Source: Dehalococcoidia bacterium
GTDB taxonomy: Bacteria; Chloroflexota; Dehalococcoidia; Lucifugimonadales; UBA1123
Direction of reading: 5' to 3'
DNA: 64,000 bases
Assembly: GCA_965214745.1 (NCBI GenBank)
Contig: OZ243978.1
Location: forward strand, 2,722,491 to 2,786,490
A model generated the notes under the pieces. It ran no database searches and was not told where the DNA came from. It saw nothing but the letters and a program-made list of their open reading frames with translations. The position numbers and the translations under genes are program-made. Of the stretch, positions 4,196 to 43,348 are shown one piece after another. Positions within the stretch are counted from its first letter, which is position 1; every line of letters begins with the position of its first letter.

Positions 4196-4270
4196 CGGGG
4201 TGTGGCGCAGCGGGAGCGCGCCTGTTTTGGGAACAGGAGGTCGGCGGTTCGATCCCGCCCACCCCGACCA
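4196..4270 (+). tRNA. tRNA-Pro (anticodon TGG), CCA encoded
   Basis: Hand-folded cloverleaf. Acceptor CGGGGTG/CACCCCG, D stem GCGC/GCGC, anticodon stem CCTGT/ACAGG with loop TTTGGGA (TGG, G37), T arm GGCGG-TTCGATC-CCGCC, discriminator A, then CCA. Confidence 0.9.
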
Positions 4271-5000: not shown

Positions 5001-7040
5001 TCACCTTCCCGACCGCGCCGCCTCCAACTCTTCCTGCCATTGCGCCACCCGCTTGGACTGCCGCAGATTAGGCGCCATGCGGATAAGCTCGTCCGTGTAC
5101 AGCCGCGCCGCATCCATCTGCGAAGGATCTCGCAGCGCGGCTTGCTGGTAGAACCTCGCGAGCGCCGCGAGCGCCTGCCAACTGAACGGCTCCGCCTCTA
5201 TCGCAATGCCGCCCTCGGCTTCGACGACTTGCAAGGCGAGCGCATACTCCTCATCCGGCATGTCCGGCGCTTCTCGCGCCGCGCTTTCTATTAGCCGTAT
5301 CCGCTCGTAATTCCCCAACGGCGGAAAGCGATCGATCCCCGCTGTGGAGATTTCCAATCGATCCGTCCACGTCCCGCTATGCAGATTGGCGTTTCTGAGA
5401 ATTCGGGCGGCAGCCATCGGCTGGTAGCTGTACGCGACAGTCGCGGCTGCGAGCGCCGCTATGACTGCCGCCGCCAAGACGCGCGCCCGCCAAGCGCCTG
5501 CGAATAGCGGGGGCGGTTCCGAATCCCGCTCGCCTGACTTGCTCCCCCTCGGTTGGGAAGGGCGATTCCAACGGCTGATTTTCCGCCACGCAGCGTCTGC
5601 CCATGCAGGCGCGGAGCGCCATCCCCATCCCGCGTCGCCAGCCGCCTCGCGCTCCTCCTGCGCGAAGTACGCCACGATGAGCGCGAACATCAGCATTGAC
5701 GTCGGCGTCTCCACCTGAACCATGCTTTGGGCGAAGAACGCCGCGCCCGCCGCGCAGTAGGCGGCGATCTCCGCGCGCCCGCCCGCCCTTTCGCGCCGCA
5801 GCGCAAGCGCAGCCGCGCGCGCCATCGCGAGCCATAGGATGATGAAAGCGGCAAAACCCGCCGCCCCCTTGCCGGACAGCTCTTCCACCGCCTTGTTGTG
5901 CGCGTAGTCGAGGTTTTGGTTGGAAACATGACCGGGTTCTAAGAATTTACCCCACATCGCGGAGAAATTCTCAGGCCCCCAGCCGAGGATCGGACGCTCG
6001 GCAAACGCTTTCAGCCCAATCTCGACGGCGGCGATCCTATCCTGAACGCTTCCCCCGTCGTCGCGTATCCGCACAAGCACCTGACTGCTCTGAACCAGAG
6101 GATCGAAATTGTCGGTGAAGACTATCGCGGCGATAGACGCCGCGCCTACTAGAACGAATACTACGGCGGCGGCGGCGGCCCACTTCATCCTCGTGGATAC
6201 TGGTCCAACCAGCAGAGCGACGCCGAACACGAGCAGCGCGACGATGAGCGCGATCAGCCCTGCGCGAGAGCCTGTCAGCCACAGCGCCCATAAGTTCAGC
6301 AGTATAGCCGCGAATATCAGAACGCGGACTGCAAGCATCCAGCCAATGAGCGGAGTCGCGCTCCTCTCACTCTTGCCGCGCCGCGCCGCGCGACGGCGGC
6401 GGTGGCGGCGGGAGATAGCCGAGCGCGGCGGCGGCTGAGACTTGCGGCGCGAGGGTCGAATCAGAAGCCCGAGACCGATTGTCACGCTGACCAAGGCATA
6501 CGTTCCTAAGAAGGTGGCGTTTCCCAGCGTGGAGTGAACCCTGTCTTCGTGCAGCGCGATTCCCAGGTCGATCATCCCGTGCCACGCGGCTACGCCCACT
6601 GCGGACACGACGGCGCTCATGAAGAGGTTGGCGGTGAACAGCAGCCTCCATTCCGACCGCGCGCGAAACACGGACGACACGACCAAGACGAACGCGAACC
6701 AGTGCGCGAGGTCGACGACGCCCTGCATCCGCTCGTAGTTCGACCAGAAGCTGCGCGTTGGGCTTGCGCCGAACAAAGCGGCGACGGCGGAGATAGCCAG
6801 CCAGAGCGCGAACGCGATGAGAATGCGAGACTTGGACGGGCGCAGATCCGGGAAGATAATTATGGCTATCAGCCAGAGCGCGAACGCGATTTCTATCAGC
6901 AGCCGCATATAGACTGCCTTTCCCACGATGAGCGGGAACAGGGAGCTAGGCGTGACTATGAGCGGGGAAACCAGAGTCAGCACAACGACGAGCTGTATCG
7001 CCAAAAGCAGAGCTTGGCGATACGCGAAGCCTCCGTTCAT
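5001..7040 (-). CDS. O-antigen ligase / Wzy_C-family polytopic membrane protein with C-terminal soluble helical (TPR-like) domain
   Basis: Many TM segments and a Wzy_C-like motif ...LDYAHNKAVEELSGKGAAGFAAFIILWL. Start placed at MNGGFAYRQ (7040) because the longer ORF (to 7211) would run into the glyQS promoter region. Contains an Arg-rich low-complexity loop (RKSQPPPRSAISRRHRRRRAARRGKSER). Confidence 0.65.
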   Translation of the reverse strand: MNGGFAYRQALLLAIQLVVVLTLVSPLIVTPSSLFPLIVGKAVYMRLLIEIAFALWLIAIIIFPDLRPSKSRILIAFALWLAISAVAALFGASPTRSFWSNYERMQGVVDLAHWFAFVLVVSSVFRARSEWRLLFTANLFMSAVVSAVGVAAWHGMIDLGIALHEDRVHSTLGNATFLGTYALVSVTIGLGLLIRPSRRKSQPPPRSAISRRHRRRRAARRGKSERSATPLIGWMLAVRVLIFAAILLNLWALWLTGSRAGLIALIVALLVFGVALLVGPVSTRMKWAAAAAVVFVLVGAASIAAIVFTDNFDPLVQSSQVLVRIRDDGGSVQDRIAAVEIGLKAFAERPILGWGPENFSAMWGKFLEPGHVSNQNLDYAHNKAVEELSGKGAAGFAAFIILWLAMARAAALALRRERAGGRAEIAAYCAAGAAFFAQSMVQVETPTSMLMFALIVAYFAQEEREAAGDAGWGWRSAPAWADAAWRKISRWNRPSQPRGSKSGERDSEPPPLFAGAWRARVLAAAVIAALAAATVAYSYQPMAAARILRNANLHSGTWTDRLEISTAGIDRFPPLGNYERIRLIESAAREAPDMPDEEYALALQVVEAEGGIAIEAEPFSWQALAALARFYQQAALRDPSQMDAARLYTDELIRMAPNLRQSKRVAQWQEELEAARSGR

Positions 7041-7218
7041 CGCTGTCGTCCGGCTTGCCAACGAGATTCCTCCAGGGGCGCGGTATGAGAGAATTATACA
7101 AAAATCAGGCGTCTGGGATTCGCGCGCCCTTGTTTGCGGCAAGCCCCGCTTGCAAGCTCGCGCGGCGAGCAGCCGCCCTTGCCTATGGGGGGCGGCATTC
7201 TCTATCCTCAATTCGAGA

Positions 7219-8598
7219 ATGCCGCCCCACTATAGTGACCGAGAGACGGAAGTGAAGCAGACGAACGACCGCGTAGACCTCGAAAAGATAGTGTCGCTGT
7301 GCAAGCGTCGCGGGTTCATCTTCCAGAGCAGCGAGATCTACGGCGGTTTGGCAAGCACCTGGGACTATGGGCCTCTCGGCGTCGAGCTGAAGAAGAACGT
7401 CAAGGATTCGTGGTGGCGAACCTTCGTCTGGGAGCGCGATGACGTCGTCGGGCTGGACGCGGCGATTCTGATGCACCCGGACGTTTGGCGCGCCAGCGGG
7501 CATGTCGCCAGCTTCGCCGATCCGCTCGTCGAATGCCGCAGATGCCACCGCCGCTTCCGCGAAGACCACATAGAAGGCGACGGCTGCCCGGACTGCGGCG
7601 GCGCGCTCACAGAAGCGCGACAGTTCAACCTGATGTTCAAGACGTTCATAGGGCCTGTGGAAGATCAGGCGTCCGAAGTATACCTGCGCCCCGAAACCGC
7701 GCAAGGCATATTCGTAAACTTCGACAACGTGCTGACCGCCACGCGCAAGCGGCTTCCGTTCGGGATAGCCCAAATCGGCAAGGTTTTTAGGAACGAGATA
7801 ACGACGGGCGGCTTCATCTTCCGAACGCGCGAGTTCGAGGCGATGGAGATAGAATACTTCGTGACGCCGGGCGAGGACGAAGCCTTCCATGAGCGCTGGA
7901 TAGAAGACTGCGTTGGCTGGTACACGCGGCTCGGCGTCGCGCCGGAGCGGCTTCGCGTGCGCGAACACGAGGCGGAGGAGCTTTCGCACTACTCCAAGGC
8001 GACGTCGGACATCGAATACCTCTACCCGTGGGGATGGGGCGAGATTCAGGGAATCGCCAACCGCACCGATTACGACCTGCGCGCGCACGCCGAAGCCAGC
8101 GGGCATCGGCTGACGTACTTCGATCAGGCGGCGGGCAAGCACATAGTCCCATACGTAATCGAGCCGGCGGCGGGCGTGGACCGCTCCGCCATGACGTTCC
8201 TAGTGGACGCCTACAGCGAGGAAGAGGTCGAGACGCCCGCCGGCAAGACGGAGACGCGCGCGCTGCTGAAGCTGCACCCGGAGATAGCGCCCGTAAAGGT
8301 CGCGATACTGCCGCTGAGCAGAAACGCGCGGCTTGCGCCCACCGCGCGCGAAACGTTCGAGGCGGTGCGGCGGTCGGGACTCATCCCCGGCTTCGTGCAG
8401 TACGACGACACGCAGAGCATAGGACGCCGCTACCGCCGACAAGACGAGATAGGCACCCCGCTGTGCGTTACGGTGGATTTCGACACGATAGACGACCGCG
8501 CGGTTACGATTCGGGATAGGGATACGATGCTGCAAACGCGCGTTCCAATAGACGCGCTGCCTTCGGAGCTGTCGCGTCGGCTGGCGGCGGCGGAGTGA
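7219..8598 (+). CDS. glyQS: glycine--tRNA ligase (dimeric class II GlyQS type)
   Basis: Start chosen at MPPHYSDRE... (ATG 7219), giving 459 aa. Motifs KRRGFIFQSSEIYGG, WDYGPLGVELKKN, FRNEITTGGFIFRTREFEAMEIEYF, GVDRS. Confidence 0.93.
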   Translation: MPPHYSDRETEVKQTNDRVDLEKIVSLCKRRGFIFQSSEIYGGLASTWDYGPLGVELKKNVKDSWWRTFVWERDDVVGLDAAILMHPDVWRASGHVASFADPLVECRRCHRRFREDHIEGDGCPDCGGALTEARQFNLMFKTFIGPVEDQASEVYLRPETAQGIFVNFDNVLTATRKRLPFGIAQIGKVFRNEITTGGFIFRTREFEAMEIEYFVTPGEDEAFHERWIEDCVGWYTRLGVAPERLRVREHEAEELSHYSKATSDIEYLYPWGWGEIQGIANRTDYDLRAHAEASGHRLTYFDQAAGKHIVPYVIEPAAGVDRSAMTFLVDAYSEEEVETPAGKTETRALLKLHPEIAPVKVAILPLSRNARLAPTARETFEAVRRSGLIPGFVQYDDTQSIGRRYRRQDEIGTPLCVTVDFDTIDDRAVTIRDRDTMLQTRVPIDALPSELSRRLAAAE

Positions 8599-29344: not shown

Positions 29345-30484
29345 CTAGGCTCTCTCTTCTATCGGGACGTACTCGACATCCATGGGGCCTGTGTAGAGCA
29401 GCCTGGGCCTAAGCAGAATGTTGTTGTCGAATTGCTCGATCACTTGCGCCGTCCAACCCGGCACCCGCCCCATGGCGAATATGGAGATGAAGAGGTCATC
29501 GGGAATGCCGAGCAGGTAGTATATCGCGCCGGAGAAGAAGTCTACGTTCTGGTAGATTCCTCGGCGTCGGTACGGCTCCATCACCTCGATTACAGCCTGA
29601 AGAATCTGGAACCACTCCGGTTCGCCCTTGCGCTCGCCCAGCTCTTTGGCGTCGTCTTGCAGGTGTAGCGAGCGCGGGTCTACGGCTTTGTAGACGCGAT
29701 GCCCGAAGCCCATGATGCGCCCGCCGCCGCGGATGCGCTCGCGGACGTAGTTTTCGGCGTTCTCCTCGCTGCCTATCTCCTGCGTCATCTTCATCACTTC
29801 TTCAGCCGCGCCGCCGTGCGACGGTCCCTTGAGAACGGCTATGCCGGTGGTTACGGCGCAGTGGAGATCCGCTTGGGTGGACGCGGCTACGCGCGCGCCG
29901 AACGCGGAAGCGTTGATGCCATGCTCGGCGTGCAGAACGAAGTCTTTGTCTATGAGCGCGGCGTCTTGCTCCGTAGGCTCTTCGCCGAAGAGCATATACA
30001 GGAAGTTGGCGGCGTGGTTGAGATTGGGGTTCGGCGCGAGCGGCTCGTTGCCGTCTCTGATGCGCGCGTGAGCCGCGACTATCGTAGCCGCCTGAGCGGT
30101 GAGGCGTATGCCCTTGCGAAGCGTCGCCTCGGACGAGTTGTCTTCGGTGTCCGGGTCGTATGCGGAGAGGGCGGATATCGCTGAGCGAAGCACATCCATC
30201 GGGTGGGAGTTTCGGGTTAGGCGGATGATGTCGAGTATCTCGCCGGGAAGCTCCCGCGCCGCCTTGAGGTCGGCGTCGAAGGCGTCGAGCCGCGTCTGCG
30301 TGGGAAGCTCGCCGTTCATCACGAGGTAAGCCGTCTCTTCGAAGTTGGACTTTTCGGCGAGGTCGTGGATGTCGTACCCGCGATAGAGCAGCTTGCCGAT
30401 GCCGCCGTCGATGAAACTGGACTTCGTTCTGTCGATGTACACTTCGCGAAGGCCGCGATGAAGCTGCACCTTCTGTTCCGTCAT
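29345..30484 (-). CDS. gltA: citrate synthase
   Basis: 379 aa. ...HAEHGINAS..., ...GFGHRVYK..DPR..., ...NVDFFSG... Confidence 0.93.
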   Translation of the reverse strand: MTEQKVQLHRGLREVYIDRTKSSFIDGGIGKLLYRGYDIHDLAEKSNFEETAYLVMNGELPTQTRLDAFDADLKAARELPGEILDIIRLTRNSHPMDVLRSAISALSAYDPDTEDNSSEATLRKGIRLTAQAATIVAAHARIRDGNEPLAPNPNLNHAANFLYMLFGEEPTEQDAALIDKDFVLHAEHGINASAFGARVAASTQADLHCAVTTGIAVLKGPSHGGAAEEVMKMTQEIGSEENAENYVRERIRGGGRIMGFGHRVYKAVDPRSLHLQDDAKELGERKGEPEWFQILQAVIEVMEPYRRRGIYQNVDFFSGAIYYLLGIPDDLFISIFAMGRVPGWTAQVIEQFDNNILLRPRLLYTGPMDVEYVPIEERA

Positions 30485-30757
30485 ATCGTGTCCTCCCGGG
30501 CTATGCTTAGCGCCGTCTCAACAGCCTAAGCATGCGCCAAGACAGTTTGCGGCAAGTGTCAGCGGGATGCTCGGTCGCCATCGGGAACCGCCCCCCGCGG
30601 AAGCAAGGGAATTCTAGCATTGGGCAGGTATAGTGTCAAGAAATCCGCGCCATTGCGGAGCGTGATAAAGGCGGCGCTTGCGGCGCGCCGAGCGCCGCGC
30701 CCCCACGACTGCGTTGCGTTGTTCACAATAGACAGCTCACAGTATATACTCCTGTGG

Positions 30758-30847
30758 GTTCCTCCCCCGCGCGCGGGGCGGAGGCGAGGATTCGACACGC
30801 GAACTATTGCCTGAGACAGTTCCTCCCGCGCGCGCGGGGCGGAGGCG
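30758..30847 (+). CRISPR. candidate orphan mini-CRISPR (2 repeats of 29 nt, 1 spacer of 32 nt; type I-E-like geometry)
   Basis: R1 30758-30786 GTTCCTCCCCCGCGCGCGGGGCGGAGGCG. Spacer 30787-30818 AGGATTCGACACGCGAACTATTGCCTGAGACA. R2 30819-30847 GTTCCTCCCGCGCGCGCGGGGCGGAGGCG (28/29 identical). AT-richer sequence lies upstream. No cas genes in the window. Confidence 0.35.
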
Positions 30848-30870
30848 GGCGAGCGGCGCGAGGCGTACAG

Positions 30871-31509
30871 ATGAATTCTATGCAGCCAGACGAGGCTCCG
30901 GAGGTCGTCGTCCTCAGGCTTCCGCTGTATGTGCGCGCGCTGACCCAGCTCCAACGCGAAGGAAGCTCCGTAGTCAGCTCTCAGCATCTGGGCGAGCGGC
31001 TTCAGATGACGCCCGCGCAGATACGAAAAGACCTAAGCTATTTCGGCAGGTTCGGCAAACAGGGGCGCGGATACAGCATCCAGTTCCTGCTGGACGAACT
31101 TCGCGTGATTCTGGGGCTTACGCGCGAATGGCGCGCGTGTCTCGTGGGCGTGGGCAGGCTGGGACGCGCTATCATCAACTACACGGGATTCGCGCCCGAG
31201 GGGTTCTCTATCGTAGCGGCGTTCGACAGCTCGAACGATCAGGTGGGCGCGTGCGTGGGCGATCTGCATGTGCGCTCTATGGACGCGCTGCCGACGGCGG
31301 TTCGAGAGCTGGACGTGAGCATCGGCATCGTGGCGGTGCCGGCGGCACAGGCGCAATCGGTCATCGACAAGCTGGTAGAGAACGGCGTTCACGGCATACT
31401 GAACTACGCGCCCGTCGCGCCCTACGTGCCGCGCGGCGTGGTGGTTCGGAACATAGACCCGGTGCTGTCGCTCCAGTCCATGACGTTCTACTTGGCGAAG
31501 ACGCGATAG
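30871..31509 (+). CDS. rex: redox-sensing transcriptional repressor Rex
   Basis: Start at MNSMQPDEAPEVVVLRLPLYVRAL (ATG 30871), 212 aa. Winged-helix region ...SSQHLGERLQMTPAQIRKDLSYFG..G..GRGY, then Rossmann motif CLVGVGRLG. Confidence 0.9.
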   Translation: MNSMQPDEAPEVVVLRLPLYVRALTQLQREGSSVVSSQHLGERLQMTPAQIRKDLSYFGRFGKQGRGYSIQFLLDELRVILGLTREWRACLVGVGRLGRAIINYTGFAPEGFSIVAAFDSSNDQVGACVGDLHVRSMDALPTAVRELDVSIGIVAVPAAQAQSVIDKLVENGVHGILNYAPVAPYVPRGVVVRNIDPVLSLQSMTFYLAKTR

Positions 31510-31526
31510 CCGCGCGGCGGACGACG

Positions 31527-31985
31527 CTACGCGCTCGGCGCGCCGCCGCCCCCGGCGGGTCCCGCCGCCTGCCGCCGCCTGCGCGGGCGGCGGCGCGCTA
31601 CGCCGAGCCGCGCGGCGGAGCGGCGCATCGACGCCAGCGCGCGCTCCAAATCCAGGTCCGATTCGGCGGATTCGATCTGCTCCTCCGCCCGCCTGAGCGC
31701 GTCTTCGGCGCGGTCGATGTCTATCTCGTCGGCGTGTTCCGCGGTGTCCGCGAGTATCGTAGCCTTGTTGCCGATGACTTCTAGGAAGCCGCCGCTGACC
31801 GCGATATAGGACTCTTCGCCGTCTTTGGTTACCCTGATCTCGCCCGGCGCGAGTATCGTAAGCAGCGGCGAATGGTTGGGCAGAATGCCGAGCTGCCCCG
31901 CCGCGCCCGGCGCGACGAGAAAGCTCACCGGCTCCGAGTACACTACCCGTTCGGCGGTTACGATTTCTAGTGTGAAGTCTGCCAT
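31527..31985 (-). CDS. atpC: F0F1 ATP synthase subunit epsilon
   Basis: Start at MADFTLEIVTAERVVYSEPVSFLVAPGAAGQLGILPNHSPLLT. Arg/Ala-rich C-terminal tail. Confidence 0.85.
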   Translation of the reverse strand: MADFTLEIVTAERVVYSEPVSFLVAPGAAGQLGILPNHSPLLTILAPGEIRVTKDGEESYIAVSGGFLEVIGNKATILADTAEHADEIDIDRAEDALRRAEEQIESAESDLDLERALASMRRSAARLGVARRRPRRRRQAAGPAGGGGAPSA

Positions 31986-32066
31986 GTAGAAATTACCCTC
32001 GCGCCCTGCCTGCGACGGGGCAGGCTGCAACCCTCTCCCGCATGGGAGAGGGAGCGTCGACCGCCT

Positions 32067-34381
<2,315 letters not shown>

Positions 34382-34450
34382 GAGCGGCTATCCTGTCCTT
34401 GCCCGCTCGGTTAGAGCGAGCTCCATTCTTGTCTCGATATGCCTAATTGC

Positions 34451-34903
34451 CTAATTATCGCTCTGAACGCGGCCGAGGGGGGAGCTAATCTCGTCAACCT
34501 CGATTTTCACCTCAGGGATTCGGTGTATATGCCAGCCCATTTGCAAGTCTATCATAATGTTGCCTTCCACGACGTCTTTCAGGTTTTCGCGCGCTTCCTC
34601 ATAGGTTTCGCCATATGTGAAAGCGCCGTTCATGTCCGGCACGATGGCGGTTATTGTTCCATCTTCCTCGCGGGTATACTCGGCGAGTTCCAACGCAGCC
34701 TGTATGTACTCGGGTAGAGAGAATCCGACGAGCTTCTTGGGGAAGGCGGGCAGGTCTTTAGGGTCTTGTACGTTGTCGGACTGGGCGCGTTCGAGATAGA
34801 AGTCGTATTCCCGCTTGTGGCGTTCCAGCAGCCGCGCAAGCGCGACCGACTCCGCGCTCGACGGGGCATCGGTTAGCTCCGGCCGTGTTATGGAAGCGGG
34901 CAT
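34451..34903 (-). CDS. HicB/UPF0150-like domain protein (no HicA partner seen)
   Basis: 150 aa. Core ...DGTITAIVPDMNGAFTYGETYEEARENLKDVVEG... matches the HicB N-terminal (UPF0150) pattern vPdlpG..t.GeT.eEA. About 80-aa N-terminal extension of unknown type. Lies in the lower-GC insert. Confidence 0.45.
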   Translation of the reverse strand: MPASITRPELTDAPSSAESVALARLLERHKREYDFYLERAQSDNVQDPKDLPAFPKKLVGFSLPEYIQAALELAEYTREEDGTITAIVPDMNGAFTYGETYEEARENLKDVVEGNIMIDLQMGWHIHRIPEVKIEVDEISSPLGRVQSDN

Positions 34904-34975
34904 GGTCTTACTATCCTAATAAGAATCGGTGAACGGTATCGAATCTTGGGGCGCTCTTTCCTTAGTTCGCGCGTT

Positions 34976-35311
34976 TTAGAAACTCAGGCATAGGCGGGCG
35001 GCGGTGGCGTGGTTGCGCTTCATCCAATCGACCATCTCGCTGAAGAAGTTTTCCGCCCGTGATCTGTCCTCATCGGAAACTTGGCGTCCATAGTCAGCCT
35101 CGCCGCCGACGTACTCGTTCATCAAGTGGGTGAGATAGGCATCATAATCCACCGAGCCGGTGTTAGCGTCGCGGAGCGCGTTCCAGTCCATTTCAAAGAC
35201 GATGATGCCATCCTCTCCGGGTTCGTAAGTCTCTATCAGTTGACATGTCAAACGGCGCGGCGGACGCGGAAGCCAACCATCCACCTTCAATATGCCGTAG
35301 TCTATCGCCAT
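34976..35311 (-). CDS. hypothetical small acidic protein
   Basis: 111-aa ORF rich in D/E (…YEPGEDGIIVFEMDWNALRD…GGEADYGRQVSDEDRSRAENFFSEMVDW…). Same strand, between the GmrSD-like gene and the HicB-like gene. Confidence 0.4.
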   Translation of the reverse strand: MAIDYGILKVDGWLPRPPRRLTCQLIETYEPGEDGIIVFEMDWNALRDANTGSVDYDAYLTHLMNEYVGGEADYGRQVSDEDRSRAENFFSEMVDWMKRNHATAARLCLSF

Positions 35312-35351
35312 TTTCGCTTGTCCTTGGCGTTTGCGTGGGTTTTCGTTATCG

Positions 35352-37040
35352 CTAGAGTCGCCACTCGGTTTTGAGCGCGTCTATCAGCGCCTCTTGTCGG
35401 CGTTTCAGAACCCTCGGCGTCCACGCGGTTTCGCTCACTACCTGAGTAGTTATAGCGAAGTTTGTGACGTTGCTTCTTTGGAAGTATTCGGTCTTCTTTC
35501 GGCGGAAATCATAGTTGTTGGCTCTGGAATTTTTACTGCGGGACAGCAGAACCAAGTTCGCCAGCCGATGCGTCCACTCTTCACGGTCATCTTCATTGAA
35601 GGTTCGCACCCACTCGGATTCATCATCAGGCGATTGCGGGAGGACGTGTTCCACCGTAATGATCTTGTGGTCATAGGTCGCGCCATCCGCCCTAGCTAAA
35701 ACGCTGTCTAGACGCAATAGCAGCGGACGCGCGAATCGGGAGACGGGACGCGGACGATAAATCGGATCATCCAAAAGCGCTACAACGTCCCTGCGCTCGT
35801 CGTCGGATAGTTGAATCTTTTCGATCGTCTCGGCTAGATCCGATTCTTCACGAAGGGCAGATGACAAAACCGGCCTGTATCGCAGAATCCTGGGGTCGCG
35901 CCTAGTTCCGATGACAAGCATCGCATAGGCGAGTCGGTCGAGTTCCGTAAGCAGTCTCAGCAGAGTCGCGGGGGCGTCCTTGTGCTTGTCGTAAAACACC
36001 ATCGCAACCGGAATCCAGTCCTCATTGTCGAGTCTGTTGAGGTATCCGAGCATACGGTTCACGTCTTCGGCATGTACATTGCTTTCGTATTCTTCCACGC
36101 CGGTGACAACCTTGAACGCTTTGGCATATGGAACCAGTGTTTCATCGACGAACTCAATCCCGTTGACTCTGACCAGCACATCTTCCTTGAACGCCTTAGA
36201 CAATTCTCTGTGAAACCTGTTCCCAGTTTCGATTACGAATATGTGGGCGAATAGTTCTCGGAATTTATCCCTGCCAAGTTCGTCTTCGATGTCTTCCCAC
36301 AGATTGGTGTATTCGTCCGCGCGATTGCCGGGTATCTCACCGATAACGTCGGATTTGAGTATATCGGTTGGAGTCAGGTCTCTGCCTCTGGCGTTGAGTA
36401 CGGAGAATATCCTATGCGCGGAATCGCGGTTGTAAGCCGATACTACAACGAGATAACACCTAGTAATTACAAACTGCGATAGAGCGTCGCGTTGTTCGTG
36501 ACTCAACCCAGACAGTTTGGAATAGAGGAAGTGAGCATTGTCGAATATCAGTTTACGGCTGTCGGAAACATGCACAGAACCTTTTTCGACGAAGTCGGCT
36601 ATTTTGCCGGACACCTGCACGTTGTCGTGAAAGAAATCTTGATCTCGTTCCCTGATCTCCAGACGAAAGCGGTCTCTGCGCCCTGCGAACACATCCCGTC
36701 TTTCACGAATACGCTCATCGAGACTGCTGCGTTTGTCATCGTCGTCGGTCAACTCGCGCAGAACACAGAACAGCATCGTCAACGTCGTCAAACGCTGCTG
36801 TCCGTCTATGACTTCATGCTTCCGAGAGTCCGGGCGGGCAATCAGAACGATGCTGCCGAGAAAGTACGGCTCGGCGGTCGTCTCATCCTCCATAGCGCCT
36901 AGAAGGTCATTCAGGAGCTCTTCGGTCTCTTCGGGCGTCCAGGAGTAAGGCCTCTGATACACAGGCATGCGGAAGAGATAGTCGTTATCGAACAACTTGC
37001 CAAGCGCGACTTCTTTGGCTTCGAAGGTGTTCTGCACCAA
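35352..37040 (-). CDS. DUF262 + DUF1524 protein (GmrSD/BrxU/SspE-type, putative modification-dependent type IV restriction nuclease)
   Basis: 562 aa. N-terminal ParB-like DUF262 motifs FRMPVYQRPYSWTPEE and VIDGQQRLTTL. C-terminal His-Me-finger DUF1524 motifs ITVEHVLPQSP...WTHRLANLVLLSRSKNSRANN. Confidence 0.85.
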   Translation of the reverse strand: MVQNTFEAKEVALGKLFDNDYLFRMPVYQRPYSWTPEETEELLNDLLGAMEDETTAEPYFLGSIVLIARPDSRKHEVIDGQQRLTTLTMLFCVLRELTDDDDKRSSLDERIRERRDVFAGRRDRFRLEIRERDQDFFHDNVQVSGKIADFVEKGSVHVSDSRKLIFDNAHFLYSKLSGLSHEQRDALSQFVITRCYLVVVSAYNRDSAHRIFSVLNARGRDLTPTDILKSDVIGEIPGNRADEYTNLWEDIEDELGRDKFRELFAHIFVIETGNRFHRELSKAFKEDVLVRVNGIEFVDETLVPYAKAFKVVTGVEEYESNVHAEDVNRMLGYLNRLDNEDWIPVAMVFYDKHKDAPATLLRLLTELDRLAYAMLVIGTRRDPRILRYRPVLSSALREESDLAETIEKIQLSDDERRDVVALLDDPIYRPRPVSRFARPLLLRLDSVLARADGATYDHKIITVEHVLPQSPDDESEWVRTFNEDDREEWTHRLANLVLLSRSKNSRANNYDFRRKKTEYFQRSNVTNFAITTQVVSETAWTPRVLKRRQEALIDALKTEWRL

Positions 37041-37087
37041 TTTACTCTACATCCGGCTTTATCGATCGTCGTTGCGTTTCACTTGCC

Positions 37088-38599
37088 CTAGTAAGGCACG
37101 CTCGCCTTGAAGTCTTCCAGCGCGGCGTTCAGCGCCTCTCCGGTTTCGTCGCTTATCGTCTTCTCGTCGCGGATAGTCGTCAGCAGCTCGGGGCGGCTGG
37201 CGTCCATGTAGCTGTGGAGCGCGCTCTCGAACGCGATGACGCGCGGTATCTCCACGTCGTCTAGGAAGCCGTTGACCAGCGCGTAGATGGCAATTACTTG
37301 CTTCTCGAACGGCAGCGGCACGTTTTGGCCCTGCTTGAGTATCTCGGTGGCTCGCTGTCCGCGCTCCAGCTGGCGGCGGGTGGCGGGGTCCAGATCCGAG
37401 GTGCCGAACTGGGCGAACGTGACCAGCTCTCGATACTGCGCGAGGTCTAGCCGCAAGGTGCCGGCTACGGAGCGCATGGCGCGCGTCTGCGCGGAGCTGC
37501 CGACGCGGGAGACGGACAGCCCGGCGTTCACGGCGGGGCGGATGCCGGAGTTGAACAGCTCGGTCTCTAGGTATATCTGCCCATCGGTAATCGATATGAC
37601 GTTGGTAGGCACGTATGCGGACACGTCTCCCGCCTGCGTCTCGATTATGGGCAGCGCAGTTATGGAGCCGCCGCCGTGCTCTTCGTCCATCTTGGCGGCG
37701 CGCTCCAGCAGGCGGCTGTGCAGGTAGAACACGTCGCCGGGGTACGCCTCGCGTCCGGGCGGGCGGCGCAGCAAGAGAGACATCTCGCGGTACGCCCATG
37801 CGTGCTTGGATAGGTCGTCGTAGACTACGAGCGCGTCTTTGCCGTCTTCCATGAACCGCTCCGCCATGGCGCAGCCGGCGTATGGGGCTAGGTACTGCAT
37901 CGGCGCGGGGTCGGCGGAGTTGGCGGCGACGACGATTGTGTGTTCCATCGCGCCGTATCCGTCCAGCAGCGCGACGGTCTGCGCCACCTTGCTCGCCTTC
38001 TGCCCGATTGCCACGTAGATGCAGATGAGGTCTCCGCCGCGCTGGTTGATGATGGTGTCTAACGCGATGGCGGATTTTCCGGTGGAGCGGTCGCCGATGA
38101 TAAGCTCGCGCTGTCCGCGCCCTATGGGTATCATGGCGTCTATAGCCTTGATGCCGGTCTGCACGGGCGTGTCTACGGACATGCGCGTGGAGACGTCCGG
38201 CGCGACTACTTCCACCGGGCGGTTTTCGGATGTGTCTATCGGGCCTTTGCCGTCTATCGGTTCGCCTAGCGCGTTGACTACGCGCCCCAGCAGCGCTTCG
38301 CCTACGGGGACTTCTACGATGCGGCCTGTGCTGCGAACGCGGGAGCCTTCCTTGACGGCGAGCGGGTCGCCCATGATGACTGAGCCAACCGAGTCTTCTT
38401 CTAGGTTGAGCGCCATGCCCATGACGCCGCCCTCGAATTCGAGCAGCTCGGTATAGGCTGCGCCAGCCAGCCCGTGAACTTGGGCTACGCCGTCGCCGAC
38501 TTCTATCACAGTGCCTTCGTCTACAGCTTCGAGCTGCTGCTCCCAGTTCTCGATTTGGCTCCGTATTACGGAGGCTATGTCTTGCCCTCTGACCGCCAT
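37088..38599 (-). CDS. atpA: F0F1 ATP synthase subunit alpha
   Basis: 503 aa. Walker A GDRSTGKS, ...[43 protein letters not shown]... Confidence 0.96.
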
Positions 38600-38685
38600 T
38601 TATGCCTCCCCGCCGAACGCGGCGCGCTCGGTCCGGTTGTCGGTTGTTTCATGGTGAATGCGCGAGCGGTCGCGCCGCCGCTCGG

Positions 38686-39225
38686 CTATCGCCTCTGAAC
38701 CAGCTCTCGGCGCATGTCTCGCAGTCGCGCGCGCGCGCTTCCGTCTATAACCTTGTCGCCAATGCGTATGACGATGCCGCCGAGCAGATCCGAATCGACC
38801 CGCGTGGTTACGCGAACGTCTTTGTCGGACATCCGGGAGAGCGACTCCGCAGCCTGCCGCAGCTGGTCGTCCGACAGCGGCGCGGCGGAAACTATCTCGG
38901 CGCGCTCTATGCCGTTGTGGTCGTCCAGCATCTCCTGATAGCGGTCCGCTATTTCGGGGAGGATGTGGACGAGGTTTCGGCTGGTGAGCAGCGCCATGAG
39001 GTTGAGCGCGAGCGGAGACACTGAGCCGCCGAGGCTCTCGCGGATGACGCGCTCTTTGCGCGCGAGCGAGATGCGCGGCGCGCTGAGCGTCTGCCGCAGC
39101 TGCTGGCTGGCTGCCGAGTCCGCCAGCAGCGTCAGGTCGTCTAGCCAGCGCTCCAGCTCGCCGCTGTCTGCTGCAAGCTCGAACACTGCTTGGGCGTATC
39201 TTCTTGTCGAGGCGCCTGCGGGCAT
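38686..39225 (-). CDS. atpH: F0F1 ATP synthase subunit delta
   Basis: 179 aa. ...RRYAQAVFELA... OSCP/delta pattern, and its position between atpF and atpA. Confidence 0.85.
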   Translation of the reverse strand: MPAGASTRRYAQAVFELAADSGELERWLDDLTLLADSAASQQLRQTLSAPRISLARKERVIRESLGGSVSPLALNLMALLTSRNLVHILPEIADRYQEMLDDHNGIERAEIVSAAPLSDDQLRQAAESLSRMSDKDVRVTTRVDSDLLGGIVIRIGDKVIDGSARARLRDMRRELVQRR

Positions 39226-39273
39226 AGGTTGTTGCCTGCCTTTGCTGGGCGGCTGCGGAGACGGCGGCGCGCG

Positions 39274-39777
39274 CTAGTTGCGGCTGGCGACGCGCTCGCC
39301 CTCTTCGAGCGTCTGGCTGATTAGTTCCGCGTGTGTGGATTCGTCTATCGAGGTTCGGATGACGCGCTCGGCGGCTACTATGGCGAGCGCCGCGAATTCG
39401 CGCCGCACTTCTTCTACCGCGGCGTCGCGTTCGCGCTGGATGTTCGCTTCGGCGCGGGCGCGCTCGGCGGCTATCTCCTCGCGCGCCTTGGCAAGCTCTT
39501 CTTCGCGGAAGCGGTCCGCCACCTCGCGCGCCTGCGCGATCAGCTGCTGCCCTTCGGCGCGGGCGGATTCGATCTGCGACTGCATCTCGTCGCGCGCGGC
39601 GGCGGCTTCTTGCTGGGCGCGCTCGGACGCCTCTAGGCTCTCCCGAATGCGCTCCGAGCGCGCGTCCAGCGCGTTGATGACCGGCCTGTACAGCAGAAAG
39701 GTCAGCAGCCCAACGAGGACGACGAAGCTGATGAGCTGCGTCACCAGACCGCTAAGGTTTATTCCCAGCGCTTCCAT
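39274..39777 (-). CDS. atpF: F0F1 ATP synthase subunit b
   Basis: 167 aa. A single N-terminal TM segment followed by a long charged Ala/Glu/Arg helix. Confidence 0.85.
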   Translation of the reverse strand: MEALGINLSGLVTQLISFVVLVGLLTFLLYRPVINALDARSERIRESLEASERAQQEAAAARDEMQSQIESARAEGQQLIAQAREVADRFREEELAKAREEIAAERARAEANIQRERDAAVEEVRREFAALAIVAAERVIRTSIDESTHAELISQTLEEGERVASRN

Positions 39778-39881
39778 GCTTGCTTCACCTCGCCCGATTC
39801 GCGCTTGCCGATGGTGTCTTGCGCCCTCTTCCCGCGCGGCGGGGACGCTCCGTTAGACGAATTTGGATTTAAGCCGCGTCG

Positions 39882-41265
<1,384 letters not shown>

Positions 41266-41313
41266 GTTCAGAAACCCCGTCGCGCGTCGGCATCGCCGCC
41301 TCGATTAGCCTTT

Positions 41314-41535
41314 CTATGGTTCCGCCTGCGCCCTGAGCGCGGCCATCAGCATCCTGTACATGCCCGCGACGCCGGCGGCTATGCCGACGCCCAGCCCCAA
41401 GAGGGTGAGCAGCGGCGCGACTCCTAGCCAGCGATCCGCCAGCCAGCCGCCAGCCGCTCCCCCGCCGATACAGATAGCCACGAACCAGCCGACTCCGACC
41501 AGCCGCAGTATCAGGGCGGCTTTTCTCCCTCGCAT
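41314..41535 (-). CDS. AtpZ/AtpI-family small membrane protein
   Basis: 73 aa with two TM helices, immediately upstream of atpB on the same strand. Confidence 0.6.
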   Translation of the reverse strand: MRGRKAALILRLVGVGWFVAICIGGGAAGGWLADRWLGVAPLLTLLGLGVGIAAGVAGMYRMLMAALRAQAEP

Positions 41536-41716
41536 CAGGGTTCGCTCAAGAGCTTGTTCAGCATATCACAATCGAAAATTCACGGTCAACGCGAACCCGC
41601 CGCCCCGCGGCGAACCCGCTAGAGCTTTGCGGACAGCGTGCAGTAGTTGTAGAATGTCAGCCGCGCTCAGTATATATATCCACGACAAGCGAACCAAGCC
41701 GACGGAGGGGTTAAAG

Positions 41717-42436
41717 ATGACAGCCCAGCAATACAGCGTCCCATACGGCAGAGACCGCGCGAACGCCATCTACACCGACGCGATGGCGCGCATGTACTCG
41801 CTAGTCGCGCTCGGCATCATGGTGACCGGCGCGGCGATATGGGTCGGCGACATGTTCGGCATCGGCTTGGCGATATACGAACTCGGATTCATCGGCATCA
41901 TCCTGTTCTTCGGCGCGACGCTGGGGCTTCTCTTCGGCGCGAACGCCGCCGTCGGCGCGGGAAACATCGCGCTGGGGACGGCGCTGTACATAGCGTTCAC
42001 CACCGTCGAAGGGCTGTTCATCTCGCCGATTCTGAAAGCCTACGATCTGGACACGATTGGGTTGGCGTTCCTGATGACAGGCGGGCTGTTCATCGCCATG
42101 AGCGCCATCGGCATGACGACGAAGAAGGACCTATCCAAGCTAGGCTCGATGCTGCTGATCGGCTTGGTCGGCGTTCTGATAGTCAGCTTAGTCAACGTAT
42201 TCCTCATCGGATCGGGAATGCTGGCGCTTCTGATCAACATCATCCTGCTGCCCATATTCCTAGGCCTGACCGTGTGGCAGACCAAGCAAGTGAAGGAGCT
42301 GGCGCAAGAGGCGGCGATGAACGGGGACGACAAGGCGGCGACGCAGATAGCCGTAATCGGCAGCATCGGCCTCTACGTGAACGTGCTGAACATCTTCCTC
42401 ATCATCCTGAGCCTGCTAGGCGGCTCGCGCGAGTGA
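41717..42436 (+). CDS. BAX inhibitor-1/YccA family membrane protein
   Basis: Start at MTAQQYSVPYG (GGAGGGG upstream), 239 aa, 7 TM segments. ...MARMYSLVALGI..., ...AFLMTGGLFIAMSAIGMTTKKDLSKLGSML..., ...IGLYVNVLNIFLIIL. Confidence 0.85.
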   Translation: MTAQQYSVPYGRDRANAIYTDAMARMYSLVALGIMVTGAAIWVGDMFGIGLAIYELGFIGIILFFGATLGLLFGANAAVGAGNIALGTALYIAFTTVEGLFISPILKAYDLDTIGLAFLMTGGLFIAMSAIGMTTKKDLSKLGSMLLIGLVGVLIVSLVNVFLIGSGMLALLINIILLPIFLGLTVWQTKQVKELAQEAAMNGDDKAATQIAVIGSIGLYVNVLNIFLIILSLLGGSRE

Positions 42437-42484: not shown

Positions 42485-43348
42485 TCAGCGCTCCTCTTCG
42501 AGGGTGAATACTTCCACATCGATTGAGCTTGCCAGTCGCCTGTCTTCCTCGCGTATCGAGTAGCCCATAACCGCCGCTATGGAACGCTCGGCGAACACGC
42601 TCTCCAGCGCGTCCGCCGACGCCCGCGCCCGCTCTATATCACGCGCGTTGATAACGCTGGACGCCTCGACCGCCACCCATACAGTGGTTCGGTCGATCTG
42701 GCGCTGCGCGCGCAGGACGAGGTCGGTCGCCGCTAGGCGCGTCTCTTGGCTAGGCGTAATCACGCCATCGTCGACGGCGTCGTATATGGGGTCGCGCATC
42801 TCCGGCTCGGCATCGATGGACACGGCGCTCTGCATGATGCGCGCCCTGCGAAGCCCCATCTTCTGGCTCAAGTAGGGCCTGATCCTGCGTGGCAGCTTGA
42901 CCTCTAAGCTGTCTCCTTTTAGAACGGCTACGTCTTGTTCGACGTTGGTGAGCCTGCCTTTGACCTCCACCATGTCCTCTTCGACGTTGGTGAGCCTGCC
43001 CTCTACGCCAGTGAGCCTGTCCTCTACGCCAGTGAGCCTGTCCTCTACGCCAGTGAGCCTGCCCTCCACGCCAGTGAGCCTGCCCTCCACGCCAGTGAGC
43101 CTGCCCTCCACGCCAGTGAGCCTATCCTCCACGCCGGTAAACCTGCCCTCCACCCCGGTGAGCCTGCCCTTGATCTCCGCCACGTCCGCCTCGATTGCGT
43201 CGAGATGCGCGGGCATTCCCAAGAACTCGTTGGTGAGCATTGCGCGCAGGAGCATACGTTGAGCGACGGGGTTCTCGTTCAGTTCGGCGATAATCCGCGC
43301 CACTAGGGACGAGGGATCTAGTTGTTCTACTGTCTGAGACATGGACAT
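42485..43348 (-). CDS. coiled-coil protein with nine RLTGVE(G/D) heptads and a C-terminal PD-(D/E)xK-like domain (hypothetical; paralogue of 48648..49340)
   Basis: 287 aa. N-terminal ...ELNENPVAQRMLLRAMLTNEFLGMP..., then the heptad array, then C-terminal ...DLVLRAQRQIDRTTVWVAVEASSVINARDIERA... Starts 5 nt after the stop of the upstream hotdog gene. Confidence 0.6.
   Translation of the reverse strand: MSMSQTVEQLDPSSLVARIIAELNENPVAQRMLLRAMLTNEFLGMPAHLDAIEADVAEIKGRLTGVEGRFTGVEDRLTGVEGRLTGVEGRLTGVEGRLTGVEDRLTGVEDRLTGVEGRLTNVEEDMVEVKGRLTNVEQDVAVLKGDSLEVKLPRRIRPYLSQKMGLRRARIMQSAVSIDAEPEMRDPIYDAVDDGVITPSQETRLAATDLVLRAQRQIDRTTVWVAVEASSVINARDIERARASADALESVFAERSIAAVMGYSIREEDRRLASSIDVEVFTLEEER
42990..43178. 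repeat. nine tandem 21-bp repeats (coding, heptad register)
   Basis: Plus-strand unit gtgagcctg(c/t)cctc(t/c)acgcca repeated from 42990. The last two units are degenerate, and two further diverged units lie upstream (~42945-42989). Confidence 0.9.

Follow-up and report, generated by a model that had tools for sequence, protein, structure and literature searches.

Genes for a GmrSD-family protein, a small acidic protein and an orphan HicB between atpA and atpG of a Dehalococcoidia bacterium: indications of a variable cargo slot within the ATP synthase operon

The F1Fo ATP synthase operon of a Dehalococcoidia bacterium (assembly GCA_965214745.1, contig OZ243978.1) was analysed within a window of 64,000 nt, the whole stretch from position 2,722,491 to 2,786,490 of the forward strand. 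Our interest was in the genes located between atpA and atpG, which code for the F1 alpha and gamma subunits. An initial annotation, made by reading the letters of this DNA, had described three same-strand genes in about 2.7 kb at this place within an atp operon of otherwise canonical order. The list of open reading frames (ORFs) bears this out. The atpA-to-atpG interval measures 2706 nt and holds three genes, all in atp orientation (minus strand), and the order atpZ-B-E-F-H-A ... G-D-C matches the gene calls of L123, a 98%-identical contig (L numbers denote the contigs and loci compared here). Going from atpA towards atpG, these genes are a GmrSD-family ORF, orf111 and a hicB-like gene, the latter followed by the 3'-terminal remnant of a hicA gene; all coordinates are given in Table 1. 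The successive spacers have lengths of 47, 40, 72 and 69 nt, and a Shine-Dalgarno-like sequence precedes each gene of this stretch. The one belonging to atpG, AAGGACAGGA, lies within the 29-nt spacer 3' of the hicA remnant. The next spacer, between atpG and atpD, is 53 nt long (33465-33517) and free of cargo.

In base composition the interval differs clearly from its surroundings. Its GC content is 0.531 vs 0.633 for the whole window, the lowest of any 2.7-kb stretch therein, and the profile runs at 0.48-0.57 within the cassette vs 0.60-0.67 in atpA and atpG. The GC content at third codon positions (GC3) is 0.61, 0.69 and 0.68 in the three cargo genes and 0.78-0.84 in the atp genes. The lower GC content of the cassette, previously judged from hand counts, thus stands, but the 58% then counted for atpA was too low (computed about 63%); the computed GC and GC3 profiles also agree with the earlier view that the cargo is compositionally foreign. 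The tRNA search of the window returned none closer than 30 kb to the cassette, the sole one being a tRNA-Pro at 4196. No convincing direct repeats flanking the cassette were found in a repeat scan, and Pfam gave no integrase or recombinase genes in it or beside it, the neighbours on L123 being housekeeping genes. The same absence of integrase, tRNA and flanking repeats had been noticed before. An integrative mobile element (genomic island, prophage, integrative and conjugative element or transposon) was considered for the cassette and rejected, as neither a recombinase nor a nearby tRNA nor flanking repeats are present.

The ORF next to atpA codes for 562 amino acids from a TTG start; an alternative GTG start one codon downstream gives 561 amino acids, as in database entry P0003. 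Neither this GmrSD sequence in its TTG-start form nor AtpG had an identical database entry, but the genome is represented in the protein collection by P0001 and P0003, located on a contig of 2.93 Mb. It matches Pfam GmrSD_N (DUF262) at residues 13-232 (E-value 3.6e-37) and GmrSD_C (DUF1524) at residues 437-554 (4.5e-27). Full-length PADLOC matches were obtained with Orf5 (4.5e-152) and with the HEC-06 models (1e-64 to 3.5e-69). The model name 'Orf5' was not traceable to any described system, and NCBIfam gave no match for the cargo proteins. The motifs VYQRPYSW, DGQQRLTT, VEHVLPQ and LLSRSKNSRANN are present in the translation, and the Pfam domains together with the full-length PADLOC matches uphold the earlier assignment of this DUF262+DUF1524 protein to the GmrSD family. 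Across 32 GmrSD homologues D79-G80-Q81-Q82-R83, the DGQQR nucleoside triphosphatase (NTPase) motif, is invariant, and so are E464, H465, N495, N504 and N509 of the His-Me/HNH nuclease motif. Sequence matches in the PDB comprised DUF262 proteins and SspE only, the best being 9jfl (3.6e-21, N-terminal half only). HEC-06 is an experimentally validated defence, and its DGQQR and EH motifs are essential for phage defence (bioRxiv 10.1101/2024.01.29.577857). Judged by these features, the 562-residue protein would be a GmrSD-family single-chain type IV (modification-dependent) restriction enzyme. By homology, it is predicted to cleave DNA with modified bases in an NTP-dependent manner and to act in phage defence.

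The second gene, orf111, codes for an acidic protein of 111 amino acids with an isoelectric point of 4.5. No match to it was found in Pfam, NCBIfam, PADLOC or PHROG, in keeping with its first description as an acidic orphan. Beyond its own 90%-identity cluster, homologues occur only in L035 and L038, in both directly downstream of GmrSD, with about 61% identity and the identical length of 111 amino acids. Its fold could not be derived by structure prediction: AlphaFold2 gave a predicted local distance difference test score (pLDDT) of 68 from a 2-sequence alignment, and the Foldseek comparison with the PDB remained at chance level (E >0.4). In an exhaustive HMMER search of 1.84 billion representatives, residues 29-77 resembled the first half of sensor-kinase PAS repeats (E 2.7e-8), a weak and partial resemblance that is insufficient for the assignment of a PAS fold. 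The product of orf111 is a real, conserved acidic small protein, an optional accessory linked to the atp-embedded GmrSD clade, which may act as a regulator, an inhibitor or a specificity factor. A further acidic family, of 125-127 amino acids and absent from the window, is found between atpA and GmrSD in three relatives (L036:5568-5948, L037:5440-5823, L039:5536-5913). Its members, 24-36% identical to each other, have in common the motif ETCxAC and, at the C-terminus, ECW or D(C)W; none had a Pfam or PHROG match. Since their presence differs among the loci, both orf111 and orf125-127 are optional add-ons to GmrSD.

The third gene codes for a protein of 150 amino acids, which had been called HicB/UPF0150-like, and rightly so: it matches Pfam UPF0150 with 1.7e-14 (53.9 bits vs a cut-off of 27.3), HicB_lk_antitox with 2.2e-05 (25 bits, just under the cut-off of 27) and the HicB-like PHROG 497 with 1.5e-07. 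A conserved N-terminal extension of about 60 amino acids has no family match. In 10 loci of related species, homologues of this hicB (48-76% identity) stand immediately upstream of atpG, mostly followed by HicA; intact HicA stands beside the orthologous hicB in L011, L018, L021, L022 and L024 (Pfam HicA_toxin 4.3e-14). Beside the window hicB the cognate toxin gene is absent except for its last 11 codons. In an alignment of the 100 nt upstream of atpG, the GGCATATCGAGACAAGAATGGAGCTCGCTCTAA of the window is homologous to the end of hicA, reading GISRQEWSSL plus stop codon vs GISREEWNSL plus stop codon in the intact hicA of L018, L021, L022, L024 and L011 at the same position. This remnant begins almost directly after the hicB stop codon. 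The same deletion remnant exists in L010 (L010:7930-7970), which belongs to a different atp subclade than the window.

Because orthologous hicBA precedes atpG in many relatives and the hicA 3' end persists here, the window hicB is a remnant of a resident hicBA module. The initial annotation had taken the three genes as a single cassette, which does not agree with this finding. Nearly all of the window hicA has been deleted, and hicB is predicted to be an orphan antitoxin gene, a degraded member without a working toxin-antitoxin (TA) pair, which may still be maintained. The last approximately 11 hicA codons and the following spacer are unusually well conserved across the loci, even where hicA is deleted; the retained end and spacer may carry a signal for atpG expression.

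Contig L123 is an independent short-read contig from a different sample and represents a conspecific strain. With the layout atpA-GmrSD-orf111-hicB-atpG it is collinear with window positions 30354-42033 and 98.1% identical over 11.7 kb, including both junctions. Between the two strains the synonymous divergence (dS) is 0.05-0.09 for the cargo genes and 0.055-0.074 for atpA, atpG and atpD. As the cargo dS matches the atp dS, the cassette predates the split of the window and L123 strains. The ratio of non-synonymous to synonymous divergence (dN/dS) is 0.16 for GmrSD, 0.09 for orf111 (6 synonymous and 2 non-synonymous differences) and 0.23 for hicB (5 synonymous and 4 non-synonymous differences), with small counts in the latter two genes. 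The values for GmrSD and, with this restriction, for orf111 indicate purifying selection. A cluster look-up revealed one further contig, of 138.9 kb, that carries GmrSD and orf111.

How the same place looks in other genomes was examined with an AtpG scan of one genome per GTDB species. It yielded 34 loci, all from metagenome-assembled genomes (MAGs) of Dehalococcoidia or Chloroflexota. The 24 of these with an AtpG 83-89% identical to that of the window form the set called related species here; the atpA of related loci is 88-92% identical to the window atpA. Gap contents were identified by tblastn with the window proteins, followed by ORF extraction and Pfam. Among the 24 related species the atpA-atpG gap measures 15-77 nt in 12, 152 nt in one and 0.5-4 kb in 11. 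A tight junction of 15-33 nt is found in many relatives and outgroups (L026 and L027 included), therefore the cargo is an addition to the canonical operon. The other atp spacers (atpH-atpA, atpG-atpD, atpD-atpC) are usually shorter than 250 nt.

At least five types of cargo exist across the 11 occupied loci, and five more contigs hold GmrSD variants (Table 1). The encoded functions are GmrSD, two kinds of type II restriction-modification (RM) pair consisting of restriction endonuclease (REase) and methyltransferase (MTase), Eco57I-like MTases and hicBA, an enrichment in defence or addiction functions, besides several small ORFs without family; neither the ORFs of L014 nor the 229-aa ORF of L013 had a family match. 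Every cargo gene with a family assignment or with a homologue in another locus lies on the atp strand. GmrSD and orf111 were not detected by tblastn in any of the 34 species-representative loci. A second, less used slot is located between atpG and atpD, where an MTase of the Eco57I/N6_Mtase/TaqI_C type directly precedes atpD in L013, L037 and L038.

Five of the additional contigs came from a protein-database search with GmrSD, which gave 5614 homologues at E <1e-30; the genomic context was fetched for the closest ones. In the clade with at least 70% identity to the window protein, all six further contigs fetched have the gene in the atpA-atpG gap (L035 probably). Homologues at 66%, 62% and 56% identity are found outside the atp operon. 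Two of them, L121:5001-6698 (62%) and L122:5001-6695 (56%) from another Chloroflexota lineage, have GmrSD between an aquaporin (MIP) gene and citrate synthase, which may be a second core-gene-flanked GmrSD slot. No relatives came up when metagenomes were first scanned with the single GmrSD protein. The alignment-based rescan gave 80 GmrSD loci with at most 45% identity and served as a negative control: 0 of the 80 has an atp neighbour. Neighbour-joining places the atp-embedded GmrSD copies in a single clade, with the non-atp copies outside it. On a tree of atpA+atpD, genomes with GmrSD are dispersed between those with an empty gap, with hicBA only and with RM genes. The occurrence of the GmrSD clade in the gap of L036-L039, L123 and probably L035, along with a cargo dS equal to the atp dS, contradicts a one-off or recent event. 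Nor do the relatives all carry the same genes at native composition: presence is patchy and the composition is offset everywhere. In every genome examined, the GC3 of the cargo lies 10-30 points below that of the flanking atp genes and partly tracks the level of the host, which is consistent with old, partly ameliorated foreign DNA.

Cargo and flanks do not share the same degree of relatedness. L037 and L038 have 95% identical AtpA and 99.4% identical AtpD sequences, but protein identity drops to 72.6% in GmrSD; compared as DNA, they are 75.8% identical in GmrSD and 86-90% in the flanks. L035 combines a GmrSD 95.7% identical to the L037 copy with an orf111 99% identical to the L038 copy. In L037, which lacks orf111, 352 nt are cleanly replaced by 8 nt, and the orf127 of L037 is absent from L035. 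These comparisons suggest that GmrSD alleles and neighbouring segments have been reshuffled among lineages. Given this mosaicism and the lack of integrase, tRNA or flanking repeat, homologous recombination would be the simplest mechanism. At the window junctions themselves no recombination tract was resolvable, the nearest relatives having 80-88% DNA identity.

Table 1. Features of the window and gene content of the atpA-atpG region in related loci. Positions in the first part are those of the window.
Locus	Feature	Position	Strand	Content, evidence or remark
Window	atpA (F1 alpha)	37088-38599	minus	upstream boundary of slot; Pfam ATP-synt_ab 1.2e-82 and N-/C-terminal domains
Window	spacer atpA/GmrSD, 47 nt	37041-37087	minus	
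Window	GmrSD-family ORF, 562 aa, TTG start	35352-37040	minus	Pfam and PADLOC
Window	orf111, acidic, 111 aa	34976-35311	minus	ORF list; no family match
Window	HicB-like (UPF0150) orphan antitoxin gene (predicted), 150 aa	34451-34903	minus	Pfam, PHROG
Window	hicA 3'-terminal remnant, 33 nt	34411-34443	minus	alignment to intact hicA genes
Window	atpG (F1 gamma)	33518-34381	minus	downstream boundary of slot; Pfam ATP-synt 1.7e-94
Window	atpD	32067-33464	minus	ORF list
Window	atpC	31527-31985	minus	ORF list
Window	atpH	38686-39225	minus	ORF list and L123 Pfam calls
Window	atpF	39274-39777	minus	ORF list and L123 Pfam calls
Window	atpE	39882-40106	minus	ORF list and L123 Pfam calls
Window	atpB	40195-41247 or 41265	minus	ORF list and L123 Pfam calls
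Window	atpZ	41314-41535	minus	ORF list and L123 Pfam calls
L036	GmrSD P0006, 76% to window GmrSD			atpA-orf126-GmrSD-atpG
L037	GmrSD P0005, 75% to window GmrSD			atpA-orf127-GmrSD-hicB-hicA-atpG...MTase-atpD
L038	GmrSD P0012, 73% to window GmrSD			atpA-GmrSD-orf111-hicB-hicB-atpG-MTase-atpD
L039	GmrSD P0017, 70% to window GmrSD			atpA-orf125-GmrSD-atpG
L035	2.3-kb contig			atpA 3' end, then GmrSD-orf111-hicB
L018, L021, L022	atpA-atpG gap			hicB overlapping 74-aa hicA; hicA ends about 30 nt before atpG
L024	atpA-atpG gap			four hicB in tandem, three with hicA
L010, L015	atpA-atpG gap			hicB alone
L017	atpA-atpG gap			truncated hicA
L011, L013	atpA-atpG gap			small ORF, N6_N4 MTase and CfrBI-type REase, upstream of two hicB copies
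L009	atpA-atpG gap			MvaI/BcnI REase and MTase, without hicB
L014	atpA-atpG gap			two ORFs without family and hicB C-terminal remnant
L013	atpG-atpD cargo	L013:8859-11078		MTase with 229-aa partner
L038	atpG-atpD cargo	L038:10002-11489		MTase
L037	atpG-atpD cargo	L037:8417-9888		MTase

Several further observations concern the same region. In the more distant Dehalococcoidia L029-L034 the atpA-atpG gap contains RidA-like and PaaI/hotdog-thioesterase-like genes of native GC (for instance L030:2997-3859), labels given from inspection of the sequences alone. The gap of L031 and L034 includes one more ORF, of 136 aa, and two small conserved ORFs separate atpG from atpD in L029, L030 and L032. Tandemly arrayed 38/63-nt palindromic units with the core CCTTCCCCCGTCAAGGGGGAAGG enlarge the atpH-atpA and atpG-atpD spacers of some relatives (L024:3759-4185, L024:8873-9174 and L015 near 5566-5742); these units are similar to repetitive extragenic palindromes (REP) or miniature inverted-repeat transposable elements (MITE). 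At L011:6441-7960, a segment of CfrBI-like REase 3' fragment, hicB and hicA is duplicated in tandem, so that the C-terminus of the 302-aa REase recurs in an 81-aa ORF (7053-7298); this duplication shows the growth mode of hicBA arrays in the slot. L019 (7930-8000) and L020, the nearest relatives of the window, have "empty" spacers of 74-77 nt which contain CCCATTAGAAT. This resembles the hicB leader CCCATTAGGAT of the window, L035, L037 and L038, a weak similarity spotted post hoc, and may be the scar of a secondary cargo loss. The frameshifts in atpG of L036 (L036:7705-8569) and in atpA of L038 (L038:4442-5954) are assembly defects and not pseudogenes; these contigs look like long-read assemblies. 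In L037 atpG is not lost, as it had seemed: a 100-N scaffold gap (L037:8317-8416) hides most of the gene. Finally, a 287-aa ORF of the window (42485-43348, minus strand), located just past the atp operon and the gene of a Bax1-I-like membrane protein, carries approximately 8.6 tandem 21-nt repeats (42990-43170) encoding the heptad GVE(G/D)RLT.

With regard to expression, a sigma-70-like consensus scan of the minus strand from 33000 to 39000 detected no promoter- or terminator-like sites. Stable hairpins were not found in the spacers, their folds being no better than those of shuffled sequences (z-score +1.2 for the 47-nt spacer between atpA and GmrSD), and the locus had no match to Rfam elements. 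Since empty-site relatives have a gap of 15-33 nt and no promoter, terminator or hairpin was seen, read-through from the atp promoter, with atpGDC on the same extended transcript, appears to be the most economical reading.

The interpretation we favour, with moderate confidence, is that the atpA-atpG spacer of this clade constitutes a variable cargo slot, a core-gene-flanked hotspot for defence and addiction genes, in which modules stack co-directionally. In the window two layers of different age would be superimposed. The first would be a hicBA module beside atpG, common in the clade, from which hicA was then deleted, leaving hicB and 33 nt. The second layer, upstream of hicB, would consist of GmrSD and the optional orf111. 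The GmrSD protein would cut modified phage DNA by means of its N-terminal DUF262 NTPase (DGQQR) and its C-terminal DUF1524 nuclease (E464-H465...N). Its clade would have entered the slot once and since then have been kept, lost or swapped among lineages. Such exchange would probably proceed by homologous recombination, with the conserved atp genes and shared cargo as homology arms and no dedicated recombinase. The cargo is most likely transcribed within the atp polycistron, or within a sub-operon continuing into atpGDC, which would ensure constitutive expression.

Several points weigh against this interpretation. The six contigs are a minority of the members of the GmrSD clade with at least 70% identity. 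At deep nodes the branching of GmrSD broadly agrees with that of the atp genes; purely vertical descent, combined with many losses and a rapid evolution of GmrSD, would therefore also be conceivable. The recombination model is built on few metagenomic contigs, the closest relatives with other cargo having 80-88% DNA identity. The persistently low GC3 of the cargo would fit repeated import or, alternatively, a composition peculiar to defence genes. The substrate specificity of GmrSD is deduced from homology, and in the orphan HicB no ribbon-helix-helix or helix-turn-helix DNA-binding domain was detected with Pfam and NCBIfam. As for expression, the consensus used may not fit Chloroflexota promoters, so that the scan may miss them, and an internal promoter, for example that of hicB, could drive atpGDC; the conserved hicB leader and the retained 3' end of hicA are places where it might lie.

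Among the other accounts of how the cargo came here, the one to be taken most seriously, though we find it rather improbable, assumes a single entry of hicBA and GmrSD into the gap, in the clade's ancestor, followed by vertical inheritance, with the empty and RM-bearing sites as later deletions or replacements and no ongoing exchange. It would explain that the atp-embedded GmrSD copies form one clade, that the deep order in the GmrSD tree (L039 outermost, L036, then the window, L037 and L038) resembles the atpA+atpD tree, and that the two conspecific strains have diverged to the same dS in cargo and atp genes. Furthermore, when identical pairs of genomes are compared, GmrSD (70-76% identity) is intermediate between atpH (about 60-73%) and atpG, and the CCCATTAGAAT of L019 and L020 is a possible, weak deletion scar. 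However, GmrSD of L037 and L038 is as far apart as in any other pair in spite of their nearly identical AtpD, orf111 is 99% identical between L035 and L038 while GmrSD reaches 72%, cargo GC3 stays below the flanks in every host, and at least five or six independent losses would be needed on the tree. A model in line with the initial annotation, a single recent horizontal insertion of the three-gene cassette by a mobile element of some kind, appears very unlikely. In its favour are the low GC and GC3 of the cargo and the tight junction in 12 related species, but hicB occupies the same position in many GmrSD-less species with the hicA remnant as a trace of decay in place, and GmrSD with or without orf111 is present at the site in genomes with 70-76% identical copies, which implies old residency; in addition, the modules occur independently of each other, and neither integrase nor tRNA nor repeats were found. 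A chimera or misjoin of the assembly at one of the junctions, which had been named as an alternative, may be regarded as excluded for all practical purposes. The source is a MAG, and the related contigs L036, L037 and L038 do show assembly defects, but the collinear L123 crosses both junctions, the 138.9-kb contig also carries both GmrSD and orf111, and L038 displays the same gene order.

A different objection concerns transcription. The operon might consist of two units, atpZBEFHA and atpGDC, with the gap as an inter-operon region, self-promoted cargo and atpGDC driven by the hicB or another internal promoter. The native-GC genes in the gap of L029-L034, together with others between atpG and atpD, would then reflect a broadly permissive junction. 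TA modules normally have autoregulated promoters, and conservation of the last 33 nt of hicA and the spacer despite the deletion of hicA is what one would expect of atpG signals. We nevertheless consider this arrangement unlikely, as no sigma-70-like site was seen on the minus strand, the 15-33 nt of empty-site relatives leave no room for a promoter, and the strict co-orientation and short spacers of all cargo suit read-through better.

Returning to the cargo slot, a more far-reaching idea can be put forward only tentatively: the embedding itself might be an adaptation, the atp operon serving a pan-immune gene pool as a common docking platform that supplies the promoter, with read-through expression, protection from deletion between indispensable cistrons and trade via atpA, atpG and atpD as arms. 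In a bolder variant, hicBA upstream of atpG may couple toxin activation to the expression of F1 gamma, beta and epsilon and thereby to energy shutdown or dormancy. Defence islands are usually placed in accessory regions or beside mobile elements. Here, an entire clade reuses a tiny spacer within an essential, stoichiometry-sensitive operon as a slot for defence and TA genes. If read-through is true, immune genes hitch-hike on housekeeping promoters, the expression of ATP synthase tolerates kilobases of foreign cargo between alpha and gamma, and ultra-conserved genes as recombination arms could spread defence genes across species without a recombinase. For annotation by synteny it follows that adjacency of atpA and atpG is not to be assumed. 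Guilt-by-embedding searches for new defence genes could also cover housekeeping operons; candidates here would be orf111 and orf125-127.

The individual components of the locus are familiar. No description was found of a defence and TA hotspot that lies, throughout a lineage, between neighbouring cistrons of the F1Fo ATP synthase operon, and our literature search returned no such case from an atp operon. TA loci typically undergo tandem amplification and decay. The related loci correspond to HicAB type II TA systems, with the order hicB-hicA and a UPF0150/HicB-fold gene overlapping a 74-aa HicA_toxin gene. The window copy differs in the loss of hicA, in its N-terminal extension of approximately 60 amino acids and in the location of the module inside an essential operon, about 30 nt from atpG. 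With GmrSD-family enzymes (Eco94GmrSD/EcoCTGmrSD, BrxU, HEC-06 and, distantly, SspE) the window protein shares the single-chain architecture of DUF262, helical linker and DUF1524 as well as the DGQQR and EH...N...N motifs, at low sequence similarity to the solved members. Known GmrSD examples reside in defence islands or within BREX, Hma and type I RM systems (bioRxiv 10.1101/2024.01.29.577857), whereas the setting here is a housekeeping operon, and the small acidic neighbours, orf111 downstream and orf125-127 upstream, have no counterpart in the described systems.

Insertion into an operon is not without precedent. Furuta et al. 2010 (PMC2853133) described a type II RM pair inserted in an operon-like structure without transposase or integrase genes; long target duplications across start or stop codons were often found in that work. 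The relatives L009, L011 and L013, with RM genes in the atp operon, are alike, but a flanking duplication was not seen at the window cassette. Payne et al. (bioRxiv 10.1101/2024.01.29.577857) reported small, often GmrSD-like defence genes nested in Hma, BREX, DISARM as well as type I RM systems, co-oriented in 96.7% and with co-regulation as the proposed rationale; in our case the host operon is a bioenergetic housekeeping operon and not a defence system. The closest parallel in organization is given by the core-gene-flanked hotspots, such as the core defence hotspots (cDHS) of P. aeruginosa (PMC10250203) and the hotspots of E. coli (PMC10121019), which often are without marks of mobile elements. 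As there, the position is fixed, different relatives hold different defence systems and the site is often empty, but here the flanks are consecutive cistrons of one essential operon, and the cargo is co-oriented, tightly packed and 0.5-4 kb in size.

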